DNA from: Myxococcota bacterium
GTDB lineage: Bacteria > Myxococcota_A > UBA9160 > UBA6930
Length of the DNA: 64,000 nucleotides
Direction: 5' to 3'
Assembly: GCA_965223705.1 (NCBI GenBank)
Contig: OZ245015.1
Span: forward strand, 4,096,001 to 4,160,000
Shown here: one piece after another, positions 32,424 through 39,697 of the stretch
Layout of the letters: each line of letters begins with the position of its first letter
Position numbering within the stretch: the first letter of the stretch is position 1
Notes under the pieces: generated by a model
What the model was told of the DNA's origin: nothing
Databases searched by the model: none
Seen by the model: the letters and a program-made list of their open reading frames with translations, nothing else
Position numbers and translations under genes: made by a program

Positions 32424-33026
32424 TCAGTATTTGCGGAGGAGGCCGCGGACGACCCCGCGGATCGTCACTTCCGAAGCGTGGAGTTCGATGGGGCGCAGTG
32501 CCCGATTGGCGGGCTCGAGGGTCACCTTGTTGCCGCGCTTGAAGAACTTCTTCAGCGTCGCCTCACTGTCGCGCACGAGGGCGACGACGGTTTGGCCGTT
32601 TCTCGCTTGGCTCGTGCTCTCGACGACCACGAAATCGCCGCTCTGGATATGCTCCTCGATCATCGAATCGCCTCGCACCTCCAGGGCAAACGTCTCCGAG
32701 GGTCGGTGCACCATTTCCCGCGGCACCGACAAGGTCTCCTGCACTTCGATCGCCTCGATCGGCGCGCCGGCGGCCACCAAGCCGAGCAGCGGGATTTCCA
32801 TGGTGCTGTCTGCCGAGCGCTGAATCGGCTCGACAGAACGCGAGTGATTCCACGACTTGCGCAGATAGCCCTTCGCAACGAGGTGGTGGATGTGCTTGTG
32901 TACGGTCGCGACGGATGACAGCCCGAAGTGTTCGCCGATCTCCTTGAGACTCGGCGAATACCCTCGGTCGGCTACAAAGTCACGGATGTAGTCGAAGATT
33001 TCGTGCTGTCGTCGTGTAAGCGCCAC
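32424..33026 (-). CDS. lexA: SOS repressor LexA
   Basis: Winged HTH, VAAG.P cleavage site, GDSM serine, TLKK lysine. Confidence 0.97.
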   Translation of the reverse strand: MALTRRQHEIFDYIRDFVADRGYSPSLKEIGEHFGLSSVATVHKHIHHLVAKGYLRKSWNHSRSVEPIQRSADSTMEIPLLGLVAAGAPIEAIEVQETLSVPREMVHRPSETFALEVRGDSMIEEHIQSGDFVVVESTSQARNGQTVVALVRDSEATLKKFFKRGNKVTLEPANRALRPIELHASEVTIRGVVRGLLRKY

Positions 33027-33048
33027 AACTCCTCCGCCTGATCGGTCG

Positions 33049-33078
33049 GAACAGTGGCGAAACTACGACGAAAGTCAA
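33049..33078 (-). promoter_or_regulatory. Putative lexA promoter with direct-repeat operator
   Basis: TTGACT -35 overlapping TTTC-N7-TTTC, then N6-GTTC. Confidence 0.45.
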
Positions 33079-33104
33079 GGCCTACGCGAGGCCCGGTACA
33101 AGAA

Positions 33105-33317
33105 TCAGCCCATCTTCTCTCGGGCGCGATCGATATCCGCGTCCATGATCGTCTTGCGCTTGTCGGCGATCGCGGAGGCGTGTGCTTCGCGCGCGAGACG
33201 AGCGAGGTAGTCCTCGGTCGCGCTCACCGCACGTTCGATCGCCGACCCCGAAACACGCAGGCCGTCGCCGTGCTTCGAGACCAGTCGCTTTACTACAGCG
33301 TTGGGTATATCACCCAT
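33105..33317 (-). CDS. Histone-fold protein (archaeal HMf-like, 70 aa)
   Basis: MGDIP.A...R, RVS..A, long alpha2, RKTI...DI..A; AGGAG SD 7 nt upstream. Confidence 0.88.
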   Translation of the reverse strand: MGDIPNAVVKRLVSKHGDGLRVSGSAIERAVSATEDYLARLAREAHASAIADKRKTIMDADIDRAREKMG

Positions 33318-33356
33318 GGGTCACTCCTATGGAGACCGTCCGGTGGGGGCGAGCGG

Positions 33357-33385
33357 AATCTAGGAACGGGAAACCGCTCCGTCAA
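33357..33385 (-). promoter_or_regulatory. sigma70 promoter of the histone gene
   Basis: TTGACG-N17-TAGATT. Confidence 0.65.
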
Positions 33386-33399
33386 CACGATCCCTGAGG

Positions 33400-34599
33400 C
33401 TAGGTCCCCCCGGCCGCTGCTTCCGCCGCACGGACCACCGCGGTGATCGCTACGCCGTGGCGGAGCGCCAAGCGCCTGCAGTCGTCGTACTCCGCGGACA
33501 CCGAGGCCGAACCATCCGGTTTTTGGGCGATTTTGACCCGCACCGCCCCGTACTCCGTCGAGACGCGTCGGGATTCCCGGGCGAGCACCCACCGATCGGA
33601 CTCGCCGTAGCGGACGCCCAAGGTTCCGGTCTCGAGAAACAGACGCTCGGCCACAGGCTGACGCCGATCCGGCGGGCACAGGATCCGCAGCGCAAAGCCC
33701 GGCCGGTTTTTCTTTCCGATCGTGTGGGTAAGGGAGACGTCCACGGCTCCCGCATCGAGCAGCCGCTCCAGTACGTAGTCGTAGTGCTCGGGCTGAAGGT
33801 CGTCGAGCTGCGTCTCGATCACGCCGATGCGATCGGATCGGGCGAAGGGCACCTGGCCGAGCACGGCGCGCAGGACGTTCGGCAGCGAGCCTTCCCGCTC
33901 GTTGCCCGCGCCGTAGCCGACGCGGTCGATCACCATCTCGGGGAGCTGCCGAAATTCGTCGACCAACACGCGAAGGAGCGTCGCCCCGGTCGGCGTGACC
34001 GTCTCCCAAGCGATGTCCGCCGGGGCCACCGGAATGCCGCGCAGCAGTTCGAGCGTGGCGGGTGCCGGAACCGGCAGCGTGCCGTGCGCGGTCTCGACCT
34101 GGCCGTGCCCGAGGCTCGGCGGCGTCGCTGTGATCCGCCGAATCCCGAGCGCGTGGGTCGCGAAGGCCGCGCCGACGATGTCGACCAACGCGTCGACGGC
34201 GCCGACTTCGTGAAAGTGGATGTCGTCCACCGAGACGCCGTGAATCTTCGCTTCGGCCCGAGCGAGCGCGAGGAACATCGCCAGCGCCCGCTCGCGAACG
34301 GGCTCTTCGAGCTTCGCGCCCTCGATGCGGTTGCCGATCTCTTCGAGTGTGCGCCGACCGACGGGCTTGCCGCCGCCGCCGACAGCGACGTAGCGAGCGG
34401 CGATCGCGCCACGCATCACCTTGCGGACCCGCAGCGAAAAGGGGACGCCCAACCCGTCGAGGCCCTCGACGAGCTCTTTGCGCGACAAGCCGAGGTCGAA
34501 AAGAGCGCCGAGAAACATATTGCCCGCGATGCCGGAAAAGGTGTCGAGGTGCAGGATCTGTTCGCCGCGAGCGGCGCCCTTCGTTTTCTTCCGACTCAT
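33400..34599 (-). CDS. larC: Nickel pincer cofactor biosynthesis protein LarC
   Basis: SGIAGNMFLGAL, HFHEVGAVD, HG.LPVPAPAT, TPTGA, KKNRPG, EYDD. Confidence 0.93.
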   Translation of the reverse strand: MSRKKTKGAARGEQILHLDTFSGIAGNMFLGALFDLGLSRKELVEGLDGLGVPFSLRVRKVMRGAIAARYVAVGGGGKPVGRRTLEEIGNRIEGAKLEEPVRERALAMFLALARAEAKIHGVSVDDIHFHEVGAVDALVDIVGAAFATHALGIRRITATPPSLGHGQVETAHGTLPVPAPATLELLRGIPVAPADIAWETVTPTGATLLRVLVDEFRQLPEMVIDRVGYGAGNEREGSLPNVLRAVLGQVPFARSDRIGVIETQLDDLQPEHYDYVLERLLDAGAVDVSLTHTIGKKNRPGFALRILCPPDRRQPVAERLFLETGTLGVRYGESDRWVLARESRRVSTEYGAVRVKIAQKPDGSASVSAEYDDCRRLALRHGVAITAVVRAAEAAAGGT

Positions 34600-35430: not shown

Positions 35431-35982
35431 CTACGGTTCTTCGGGGAAGAGCGTGACGGGAATGCGGTAGAGCCCTTCGCGGTCGCGCACGGCGGTTTCC
35501 ACGCGCATCACGCTGCCGGTGCCACGGCGAACGGCCGACACCGCTTCGAGGGCAATACTTCCGTCGCGCGGAACGAGCACCGGAACCGAGGGCCGGAGGT
35601 CTAGCGCCAAGAGCGTTCCGATGGCGCCGATCAAGTGCGAGGCGAGGATGTTCGCCACTTCCTGAAGCGCCGAAACGCGGAGCGCTTCGCGATGGTCGGG
35701 TCCGAGCAGCGTTTCGCCGAGGCGAGCGGCGGTACCTTCGGGAAAACGAATCGCAACGGTTCCGCGAACGGGCCCTTCGATCTCAAAGAACGCAGCAGCG
35801 CACGTGGGTTCCGGATCGCGCGCACCGACGGCGGAGAGAGCCAACACCTGCGGGACATCCATCCAGCACTGCTTTTCGAGAAGAACGGCGAGGGCATCCG
35901 CGGCGTGGCCCGCGCCGACGTTCACCATCTCACGAAGGCGATCGACCCGATCGGACAGAACGTGGCAAGACAGTTGCGTCAT
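35431..35982 (-). CDS. cheC: CheC-like phosphatase (DifG-like)
   Basis: Two E-x-x-N motifs (EMVN, EVAN). Confidence 0.8.
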   Translation of the reverse strand: MTQLSCHVLSDRVDRLREMVNVGAGHAADALAVLLEKQCWMDVPQVLALSAVGARDPEPTCAAAFFEIEGPVRGTVAIRFPEGTAARLGETLLGPDHREALRVSALQEVANILASHLIGAIGTLLALDLRPSVPVLVPRDGSIALEAVSAVRRGTGSVMRVETAVRDREGLYRIPVTLFPEEP

Positions 35983-37597
35983 AGGAGGTGGTGGAGATCC
36001 AATGTGAAGACCGGGCTGCCGTTCCCGAGGACAGTGAGCCCGGCGAGCGCTCGGGCCGCGTCGAGGAACGCCGGCACGGGCTTGACGTAAATTTCTTCTT
36101 GGCCCGCGAGCCGGGTGACCCGGAGCGCGATCCGCGCGCCGCGAACTTCGGTGAGAACCAGGATCGCCGGCCCGTCTCCCGGATCGCTGGACGGGAGCGC
36201 CAGGGTTTCGGCCAGGTCGATCACCGGTACGGGCTCGTCATCGATCAAGGCGAACGCTTCCCGCCCGCTGTGCTCGATCGTTTCCTGCGTCACTTCGAGC
36301 GCGCGCTCCACCTTGCCGATGGGGATCGCGACCATCTCGTTCGAAACGCCCACCAGCAGCACGCGCTGGACGGCGGCGGTGACGGGAACACCGAGGGCTG
36401 TCGACGTGCCGACGCCGAGCTGCGATTCGAGCTCGACCCAGCCGCCAAGGGACTCGACAGTCGCTTTGACGGCATCCATTCCGACGCCCCGACCAGAGAT
36501 CTCGGACACTTCATCGCGCGTGGAGAGACCGGGGCGGAAGACGAGCGCTGCGACTTCGCTCGCCGGAAGATCCTCAGCCAAATCGGCGTGGAGAAGGCCG
36601 GCGTCGACGGCGCGATCGCGAACGGATTCGAGGTCGATCCCGCCCCCGTCGTCACGGACAACCAGGCGAATCGAGTCTTTTTCGCGCTGGGCCGAGACCA
36701 CGATCTGCCCGACGCGATTCTTGCCCCGGCGGACCCGCTCATCGGGGTCCTCGATTCCGTGGTCCACCGCGTTGCGCACGAGGTGAACGAGGGGATCGCT
36801 CAGGCGATCGAGAATGGCGCGGTCGAGCTCGAGCTCCGCACCCTCGAAGACCACTTCGACTTTCTTGCCGGCGGCTCGCGCGACGTCGCGGGCCACCCTC
36901 GGCAGGGGGTCGAGCACGCGCAACAGCGGCGCTGTCCGCAGGGAAAGCGCCCGACGCTGTAGCTCACTGACCGCTCGATCCATGCGGTCGAGCCCCGACG
37001 AAACCGTCCCGCTGGATTCTTCGGAACCGATACGCACCTGCCGAGACGTCAGCACGACTTCGCCTACGGTCGACAGAAAGCGATCCAACGTCTCGGTGCG
37101 GACCCGGACGCTCGGCGTCGCCGTCGGTCCTTTCGCGGGCTGGGCGTCGGCTGGACCTACCGACGCCCGGGCGCTTTTTTTGGTTCTCGCCGCTCGTGGG
37201 TTTCGATCGGCGGCTCATCGCTCGGAACGACCGGCACGGCCAACGCCTCGAGCAGCTCGGCGCCAGCGGCCGGAACCTCGCGGCCCTCGCGAACCGTTGC
37301 CACCATTCCCTCGAGACCTTCGAGTCCGTGAAAGAGAGCGGACAGGCCCGCTTCGTCTATGTGTCCCTCGGTGCGATACGCGTCCATGCGATCTTCCAAG
37401 CGATGCGCCACGTCGGCGATGCTGTCGTAACCGATAGAGGCGGCCATCCCCTTGATCGAGTGAGCCATTCGAAAGGCCGTGTCGATCGCCTCCGCTCGGT
37501 CGGGATCTTTTTCCAGTGCGAGCAATTCTCTCGAGAGCTCGGCGAGATGCTCCGTCGCCTCCTCGAGAAAGAGCTTCTTATACTTCTCGAGATCCAC
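35979..37597 (-). CDS. cheA: Chemotaxis kinase CheA (DifE-like) encoded across a -1 frameshift at about 37175
   Basis: Hpt (FRMAHSIKG) in 37157..37597; SVRV..ETLD dimerisation, HLVRNAVDHG, DDGGG, SGRGVGMD and CheW-like domain in the -1 frame; joined product about 539 aa. Confidence 0.88.
37142..37181 (-). other. Candidate -1 programmed frameshift cassette
   Basis: A7 (37175-37181), 6-nt spacer, 9-bp stem GGGCGTCGG/CCGACGCCC with the 0-frame TAG in the loop. Confidence 0.65.
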
Positions 37598-37965
37598 TAC
37601 TCGCTCTTCTCGAGCACCTTCCCGAGCGTCGCGATTACGGCTTCGGGTTTGAACGGCTTCACGATGAAGTCGAGCGCGCCGGCTTCCAGGGCCTCGGCGA
37701 CGAGGGACTCTTGGCCGAGCGCGCTGCACATCACGATCGCCGCGTTGGGATCGACCTTCACGATGGTTTTGACCGCATCGATTCCGGATCGCTTCGGCAT
37801 CACGATATCCATCATCGTGACGGTGGGGTGCAGCTCCTCCCACTTGTCGACGACTTCGAAGCCGTCGGAAGCTTCTCCGACCACTTCCCAACCTTCCGGC
37901 TCCACAATGTCTCGGATCATCTGCCGCATGAACGATGCGTCATCGGCGACGAGGATACGCTTCAT
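37597..37965 (-). CDS. cheY: CheY-like response regulator (DifD-like)
   Basis: ILVADD, MDIVMP, CSA, KPF. Confidence 0.93.
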   Translation of the reverse strand: MKRILVADDASFMRQMIRDIVEPEGWEVVGEASDGFEVVDKWEELHPTVTMMDIVMPKRSGIDAVKTIVKVDPNAAIVMCSALGQESLVAEALEAGALDFIVKPFKPEAVIATLGKVLEKSE

Positions 37966-38429
37966 CAAAAACCTCCGTGCAGCGAGCTCTCTCCGACGAC
38001 GCCGCGCCGAAAAATCTCACCGACTTGTTGAATCAATTTCTGGGGATCCAGAATTTGCACGACGCGCCCATCGATGGGCCGACGCTCTGCGACGATCGAA
38101 CCGTCCCGCGCGCGCGAGGCGTGGCCGTCGACCAGACCGCAGACGCGGTCGACGGGGACGCCGATCCGAGCGCTCTCCTCGGCTTCGGCCAGGACGAGCA
38201 GGTGCTCCGGCGTCTCGAGATCATTGCGATCGATCTCGAACAAGACTTCCCGGTGGATTACCGGGAGCGCATCGCCGTGGTGATTGGTGATCGCTCCGGT
38301 TCGAGGCGGGACCGTGGGGATACACGCGAGCGGACCGAGCTCTGCCACCTCGGCGACGGATGCGATGGGAAGGGCGTAGGTCGTCTCGTCGACCTCGAAC
38401 AACAAGAGACGCGCCGCCGGACCGTTCAT
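37965..38429 (-). CDS. cheW: CheW-like adaptor (DifC-like)
   Basis: [16 protein letters not shown]...[19 protein letters not shown]. Confidence 0.85.
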
Positions 38430-39697
38430 GACTCGCTGCCGTTTCCCGCTCGGAAGCGCTGCGACAGTGTCCGCATCGCGTCCGCGCGCTGCGTCAAGGC
38501 TTCGGCGGAGCCGACGATCTCGCCCATGGAGTCGAGCTGCTGTTTCGACGCTCCGGCGACTTCTTCCATCGACGCTGCGTTCGTCTCGGCGACCCGGCCG
38601 ATCTCCTGCATCGACTGCACCATGCGTTCGGCGTCTTGCGACTGATTGTCGGCCTCGTTGAAGATCTCTTCGGCGCGCGCCGCGGCTTCGCCGACGGCAC
38701 CGCGAATCTGTTCCAGCGAGAGAGCGATCGTGTTCACGTCCTCGCGACCCTCGCCGATGACCTGGCCGGACTCCCGCATCTCGTCCGCCACGTTCTGCGT
38801 GTCGCCCTCGATCTCGTTGATGAGCTTCGAAATCTCGTCGGCACTTCGTGCGGCGCTCTCGGCGAGCTTGCGGATCTCGTCGGCGACGACCGCGAAGCCG
38901 CGCCCCGCCTCGCCGGCGCGCGCGGCCTCGATCGACGCGTTCAACGACAGCAGGTTCGTTCGCGACGCGACGCTCGTAATGATCTCGGTGATCTGGTGAA
39001 CGTGTCGGGTTTTCGCTTCGAGCTGGAAGACCATCGCTCCCGACTGCTCGACGCGTTCGAAGACACTGCGCATCTTTTCAATCGCGAGCCGCGAGACGTC
39101 GACACCCGAGTTCGCTTTCTGATTCGCTTCGGCCGCGAAGCCAAACGCTTCGCGCGCCCGTCCGGCGTTGAGCTCGATGGCGCTCGCCATTTCGCCCGCG
39201 AGACGCGTCACGTCCTCGATGAGGCGCTGTTGCTGTGCGACACCCGCCGCGACTTCGCCGACCGTGGTGCAGATCCCCTCGCCGCTGCTGCTGATCGAAC
39301 TCGAGGCACTCGCCAGGTGAGCGGCGGCAAAAGAAACGCCTTCCGACGTCGATTGGACCTCGCGCACGAGTTCGCGTAGCGCCTCGAGCATGTTCGAAAG
39401 ACCGGCCACGAAATCGTGTCGCTCGTCGGGAAACTGCGGCGACGCACGCAGTGCGGCGATGTCCGAAAGATCGCCTGCTCCCATCCGTTCCGCAGCGGCC
39501 AGAAGCTCGTGTTGGTGGTGCAGGAAACCGCGAGACGCGACGAATCCGGCGGCGGCGGCGAGGCCCGCGCAGAGAATCAACCCGACCCAAGCGGGCGCCC
39601 CCGCCCAAATCGCCCGGGTCGCCCACGGCGTGAGTGCGCCGAGCCACGCGATGGCGACGGTCGCAGCGACGAACTTATGGGTGAGTGATAGCCGCAC
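38426..39697 (-). CDS. Methyl-accepting chemotaxis protein without periplasmic domain (DifA-like)
   Basis: Two closely spaced TMs, [30 protein letters not shown]. Confidence 0.95.

Follow-up and report, generated by a model that had tools for sequence, protein, structure and literature searches.

A histone gene between larC and lexA

The window, i.e. the whole stretch of 64,000 nucleotides analysed here, carries on its minus strand a stand-alone histone gene, flanked by larC and lexA and preceded by its own Shine-Dalgarno sequence and promoter elements (Table 1). Translation of the ORF gave exactly the 70-aa product reported by a sequence-only reading of this DNA, and the AGGAG and TTGACG-N17-TAGATT motifs pointed out there are both present. 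The sigma-70-like promoter (33385-33357) is the sole promoter-like site within positions 32500-34000, vs. 0.2 +/- 0.5 sites in shuffles of the same region. Fifty orthologue loci were read (the 30 best-scoring and 20 chosen from weaker matches), and a promoter-like pair was found at 30 of them vs. none of 197 upstream control windows, a lenient control as these are mostly coding DNA. This conservation of the promoter suggests that the histone gene is expressed.

Table 1. Features of the histone locus (window positions) and the two other histone genes of the same genome (positions on contig C1 of genome G000)
Feature	Position	Strand	Basis or remark
Histone gene, 70 aa, single histone fold, HMfB-length alpha2, full alpha3	33105..33317	-	ORF translation, profiles, alignments
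Shine-Dalgarno AGGAG, 6 nt before ATG	33324..33328	-	Sequence; SD-like word at 44/50 orthologue loci
-10 element TAGATT	33357..33362	-	Promoter scan
-35 element TTGACG, 15 nt past the larC stop	33380..33385	-	Promoter scan
larC (nickel pincer cofactor biosynthesis), conserved upstream neighbour	33400..34599	-	Profiles; same strand, 45/50 loci
lexA, direct downstream neighbour in the window genus	32424..33026	-	Profiles
FtF-type histone: short fold, basic N-terminal tail, FtF Arg/Asn signature	G000:C1:505634-505846 (L044:3635-3850)	+	
ZZ histone: Cys-rich ZZ-type domain fused to a dimer-type fold	G000:C1:821925-822104 (L086)	-	Coordinates are those of the fold

The genes around the histone are mrdA, mreC, mreB, a PPIase gene, a sigma-70 factor gene, folE, lexA, larC and larB, with cheC/A/Y, an MCP gene, thiL and lon as further core neighbours. 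Among the 18 larger ORFs scanned around the histone, none matched a mobile-element family above cut-off, in agreement with the core-gene setting described before. The chemotaxis cluster (35431-39697, minus strand) comprises the MCP gene, an ORF taken as CheW-like from its position, cheY, cheA and cheC; the best scores of CheA and CheY were obtained against haloarchaeal models, below cut-off, and the cheA reading frame appears to be broken into two ORFs (37157-37891 and 35979-37088).

Most relatives have a convergent groESL separating the histone gene from lexA; in some, an esterase gene lies between larC and the histone, both identifications being made by eye on the translated ORFs. In the window genus, groESL is absent and lexA lies 78 nt downstream of the histone gene, the interval (33027-33104) being without clear terminator. 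As the terminator scan near the histone found one terminator vs. 0.8 expected, i.e. chance level, and the hairpin downstream of the gene is not unusual (z 0.98), read-through from the histone gene into lexA is possible. The adjacency of larC and the histone is probably positional only.

The histone gene is under purifying selection, with dN of 0.06-0.11 and dS of 0.85-2.2 between the window gene and four close orthologues, and a median pN of 0.17 and pS of 0.65 over 46 orthologues. An overlapping plus-strand ORF of 130 aa (33054-33446) was discarded, since an antisense frame over a comparable span is open in only 11 of 47 orthologue loci.

Fold, DNA contacts and tetramer sites

The histone passed the Pfam profiles Histone (45.9 bits vs. 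a cut-off of 26.4) and CBFD_NFYB_HMF (32.3 vs. 21.4), a search with the latter having been proposed by the sequence-only reading; with NCBIfam archaea_histone (NF043032), it scored 36.8 bits, under the cut-off of 50. The best PDB sequence matches are H3 chains, gap-free over residues 8-67, and A51 falls on the H3 His before AKR, which we take to be H113. The HMfB register was set via protein P0212, which is gap-free against 1A7W and to which the window histone (P0001) aligns with one extra L1 residue, in line with the single 1-aa gap to HMf seen earlier by eye. From L1 to the C-terminus, the alignments to P0212/HMfB and to H3 are gap-free: alpha2 and alpha3 are full-length, and the stand-alone histone is of HMf length and not shortened. 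In this register, P5, R11, R21, R54, T56 and D61 correspond to HMfB P4, R10, R19, R52, T54 and D59, so that the kept N-terminal Pro, alpha1 Arg, L1 Arg, RKT, R-D bridge and full alpha3 were recovered, and HMfB L46, H49 and L62 indeed read S48, A51 and R64. P5, K10, R11, R21, R54, K55, T56 and D61, including the equivalents of R10, R19, RKT and the R52-D59 clamp of HMf, are invariant in all 50 class orthologues. The protein shows neither an extra domain nor a C-terminal extension nor a defining operon partner; its net charge is only +2 (13 K+R, 11 D+E) with a pI of 9.3, the charge ranging from +1 to +4 among orthologues.

Concerning known systems, the window histone resembles HMfB/HMfA (PDB 1A7W, 5T5K) and HPhA (1KU5) in its single fold with full alpha3, and HMf in its alpha2 length (R19-R52 and R21-R54 both spanning 33 residues) and in the kept P4, R10, R19, RKT and R-D clamp; its nearest Atlas clusters outside Myxococcota are archaeal histones (0.92-0.90). 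Unlike HMf, it has a bacterial host, the S/A/R replacement of L46/H49/L62, one extra L1 residue, M-D in place of K56-A57, a score below the NCBIfam archaeal cut-off and a separate clade in a tree of low resolution (SH-aLRT 88). With HBb/Bd0055 of Bdellovibrio bacteriovorus, it shares the bacterial stand-alone singlet form, the lack of the tetramer His, the RKT motif and, putatively, dimeric DNA bending; in HBb, however, alpha2 is shorter, alpha3 truncated and the sprocket Arg missing, whereas the window histone has full lengths and R21, and stands apart from alpha3 histones in the tree. Face-to-face (FtF) histones (HLp of Leptospira perolatii, HTkC) have the histone fold in common with it and are found in Myxococcota, the same genome encoding one, but their signature Arg and Asn, at -6 and -2 from the L2 Arg, are S48 and D52 in the window histone; among the 50 orthologues, site 52 is Asn in eight and site 48 is never Arg. 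Sixteen residues follow the L2 Arg in the window histone, vs. eight in the FtF type and ten in the dimer type of the class.

According to Schwab 2024 (PMC11390915), alpha3 histones (bacterial dimer, FtF and ZZ) have an alpha3 cut to 3-4 residues and an alpha2 shorter by 4-5. The window histone falls outside this description; in our alignment, a 4-residue alpha2 gap occurs only in the dimer and ZZ rows and a larger one in the FtF row. It also shows none of the defining features of ZZ, IHF, coiled-coil, RdgC, Methanococcales or phage histones. The 'Undefined' class of the same survey is described as confident only as monomer and dimer. Hocher 2023 (PMC10627809) calls a shorter alpha2 diagnostic of bacterial singlets, and the surveys PMC11390915 and PMC12701072 (Hu 2025) give nucleosomal histones as exclusive to archaea. 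Table S1 of Hocher 2023 holds DKAI01000097.1-5 (Deltaproteobacteria bacterium UBA6930), 91% identical to the window histone, and OGV57618.1 (Lentisphaerae), which by eye resembles the P0272/P0273 branch of the family; both are table rows, and the full-length type is undiscussed in the main-text parts consulted. A search of the Hu 2025 supplement gave no match, and no description as a family was found in the literature searched, a body that excludes most subscription journals; the Schwab 2024 supplement may class the window histone. The sequence-only reading, which proposed a possible distinct type of chromatin protein, had overlooked the catalogued orthologue, the presence of three histone-fold proteins in the genome and the extension of the family beyond the class. 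Judged from its sequence, the window histone is a catalogued but undescribed prokaryotic histone variant, outside the alpha3 families and failing the tetramer test of nucleosomal histones.

That test derives from Henneman 2018 (PMC6136690), where L46, H49, D59 and L62 are required for tetramers, and it is echoed in Hocher 2023, where Bd0055, lacking the tetramer residues, wraps DNA in an HTkA-like manner once they are grafted in. The window histone fails this published dimer-dimer criterion, as fits the earlier view that it would not build classical hypernucleosomes. His at site 51, the H49 site, was found in none of 50, 120 and 115 family proteins (overlapping sets), vs. 35 of 37 HMf-type metagenome loci used as control. 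Across the 50 class orthologues, site 48 is S35 L6 A5 I2 C1 V1 (entropy 1.5 bits), site 51 A31 K5 E4 S3 R3 plus four others (2.0 bits; A/K/E/S/R/T/D/Q/G over the class) and site 64 K30 R8 A5 plus seven others (1.9 bits), whereas DNA-contact and dimer-core sites are invariant. Such variation fits a loss better than a conserved new interface, and the tetramer interface, previously called 'rewired', looks lost.

A genuine rewiring, i.e. a bacterial (hyper)nucleosome formed through a different four-helix bundle, perhaps only on DNA, is unlikely. The small A47, S48 and A51 would permit close packing, and charged pairs around H46/D52/K-R64 would stand in for the His-Asp and Leu contacts. Full-length alpha2 and alpha3, as a bundle needs, are kept at constant length (33 residues from L1 Arg to L2 Arg in 120/120 and 114/115 family proteins), although L1 in the family is longer by one residue, site 18 being D/E in 25/50 orthologues. 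Among the 120 closest relatives, A51 (118), S48 (112) and, to a lesser extent, H46 (80) are retained, so some constraint acts at the almost fixed A51 and S48, but over the class site 51 takes nine residues and site 64 eight (about 2 bits), and by the scoring of Henneman 2018, replacing L62 with a long charged residue is a disabling type of change. Also in favour of a rewired bundle are the family-specific R40, M58, D59 and R66, near-invariant for no known reason, and site 48, which is His or Tyr in 37 of the 115 proteins of the wider family. It is similarly doubtful that this bacterial family of nucleosomal-length histones, which would have been fixed in the class ancestor and also occurs in MAG records of Verrucomicrobiota, Lentisphaerae, Planctomycetes and Acidobacteria, wraps DNA via a His-free four-helix bundle; if it did, this would be the first bacterial nucleosome-like fibre built from a full-length fold, within a multi-histone chromatin (long, FtF and ZZ, the HBb-like form being swapped in once or twice).

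With four copies, ESMFold2 gave a homodimer score of 0.67, vs. 0.00 for the best control; for calibration, 20 of 30 solved pairs reached the mark, as did 1 of 23 single chains. Contact agreement was at least 88% and pLDDT at least 81, the best contacts being antiparallel alpha2 and L1-L2 pairs. A handshake homodimer is supported by this prediction, although the program may have reproduced histone dimers that are already solved. Confident contacts joined two copies only and have no weight for or against a tetramer, residues 47, 48, 51-53, 60, 64 and 67-70 not being named in them; histone tetramer predictions made without DNA are considered unreliable by Laursen and Luger (10.1101/2025.06.26.661778). 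The single-chain AlphaFold2 model merged alpha2 and alpha3 into one helix (pTM 0.54), so that the fold was not recovered, and Foldseek with this model gave no match at E <= 0.001. Neither this single-chain model nor its Foldseek search was informative.

Distribution of the long histone and of its companions

Of the 225 genomes available for an uncultured class of Myxococcota, probably GTDB UBA9160, 136 carry the long histone, as the window type is called hereafter; the carriers belong to both orders, and the gene is mostly downstream of larC. It is present in 76 of the 118 high-quality genomes and in 136 of the 154 genomes outside families f5 and f11, and is single-copy in all carriers but one. 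The sole second copy (L058, G064:C31:11345-11551) and its larC resemble family f10, and the contig may be mis-binned. The 12 named relatives are MAGs titled Myxococcota or Deltaproteobacteria, except two titled Spirochaetales, taken for mislabels, and distant family members carry the source labels Verrucomicrobiota, Planctomycetes and Acidobacteria. In the phylum sample, matches outside the class came from eight genomes (best E 1.1e-8), none of them with a clear orthologue and the seven weakest being alpha3-type.

Two further kinds of histone were observed. In genome G360, from another class of the phylum, L075:2229-2552 (minus strand) codes for a histone fold of full length that is extended at its C-terminus; an HU/IHF-like ORF (by eye) follows immediately downstream, as fits the IHF-histone arrangement of Schwab 2024. 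Doublet histones (P0156, P0177, P0196, P0198, P0206, P0215, P0245 and P0265) scored well against the long-histone family profile and have no H49 equivalent.

In the histone tree (74 rows, 70 columns), 26 of 27 family rows form the one clade mentioned above, apart from alpha3 histones and HMf-like rows; support is low, and as 38 of 71 inner branches are unresolved, no donor can be named. Contamination or recent transfer was ruled out by synteny, class-wide presence and a GC content of 0.63 vs. 0.647 for the contig. A phage origin is unsupported, three viral contigs matching at 33-40% identity.

The window genome encodes three histone-fold proteins (long, FtF-type and ZZ) as well as two HU/IHF proteins. 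Its FtF-type histone has no Pfam match, and its ZZ histone reads RMT in L2 where RKT is expected. At two loci of family f4 (L085 and L087, in G037 and G038), a ZZ-type domain is followed by two tandem histone folds, and G195:C50:163422-163790 may encode an FtF doublet, as two FtF-type matches follow each other there in what seems to be a single open frame of 167 aa.

The FtF-type histone occurs in 208 of 225 class genomes (116 of 118 high-quality ones), so that nearly every carrier of the long histone has both. A partnership, in which the long histone would act as heterodimer or 'capstone' with the FtF type, limiting or tuning its tetramer wrapping, has a parallel in the capstone variants proposed in archaea (PMC8775648, citing Stevens 2020). 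We regard it as quite improbable, given that the two genes are unlinked (505634-505846 vs. 4129108-4129317 on G000:C1), that the alpha2 lengths differ, that a homodimer is predicted with confidence, and that f11 keeps the FtF histone in 64 of 68 genomes without any long histone.

As a whole, none of the 71 genomes of f11 (68) and f5 (3) has the long histone. In the five well-assembled f11/f5 genomes checked, the roughly 1.5 kb following larC are free of histones, and larBC persist where the long histone is lost. Weak f11 matches, at first sight a diverged orthologue, proved to be alpha3 histones of HBb-like type encoded elsewhere in the genome. When an f11 singlet of this type served as query, strong matches (E <= 4.2e-19) were found in 63 of 68 f11 and 3 of 3 f5 genomes (66 of 71), and each of the 17 loci read there codes for a stand-alone singlet some 60 aa long. 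Weaker matches came from 106 genomes of the other families; among the 52 read, including the strongest, 50 are ZZ fusions, the remaining two are cut off by a contig end, and none is a stand-alone HBb-like histone. Long and HBb-like singlets were never seen together in one genome among the loci read. The two appear complementary in distribution, which suggests replacement and a dimeric DNA-bending role, and hints that they do the same job. Related genomes are not independent, and the singlets of f5 and f11 have a neighbouring gene in common, so a single event may be involved; a quick LarC tree, which sets f5 apart from f11 weakly (support 84), hints at two. The replacement pattern amounts to only one or two evolutionary events.

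A probable DNA-bending homodimer

The long histone is probably a chromosomal, vertically inherited nucleoid protein that acts as a sequence-independent DNA-bending homodimer, HBb-like in action with an HMf-length fold, beside the FtF-type histone. Its gene codes for a conserved, single-copy, full-length histone fold under its own promoter, and the product is predicted to form a handshake homodimer. From the kept HMf DNA contacts (R11, R21, R54-K55-T56 and D61) and the pI of 9.3, we infer that this dimer would bind the DNA backbone without sequence specificity, and it would bend about 30 bp, a footprint taken from HMf-type dimers. The loss of L46/H49/L62 suggests that neither stable four-helix-bundle tetramers nor hypernucleosomes would be formed. 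From the complementary distribution, the long histone would fill the slot held in f11/f5 by the HBb-like bacterial-dimer histone, and would work beside the near-universal FtF-type histone (which would wrap DNA), the ZZ histone and the two HU/IHF proteins. This reading is weakened by the low net charge of +2, by the constraint seen at A51 and S48, by the single-chain model with its merged helices and by the small number of events behind the replacement pattern.

A narrower role, as transcription cofactor, scaffold or larBC/groESL-tied function instead of bulk chromatin protein, is very unlikely: the low net charge, the stable position between larC and groEL and the dispensability in f11/f5 are consistent with it, but none of the canonical backbone-contact residues varies, the gene is preceded by a near-consensus promoter of its own, it is often parted from larC by an esterase gene, larBC outlast it and the protein lacks any additional domain.

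As a core gene retained across a bacterial class, the full-length histone is no contaminant but a stable exception to the published surveys cited above. In it, helix length is uncoupled from the loss of the tetramer His, two features confounded in HBb, which makes the question of wrapping vs. bending testable on a natural protein. With its four histone types, the class offers a natural system for the division of labour and replacement among bacterial histones.
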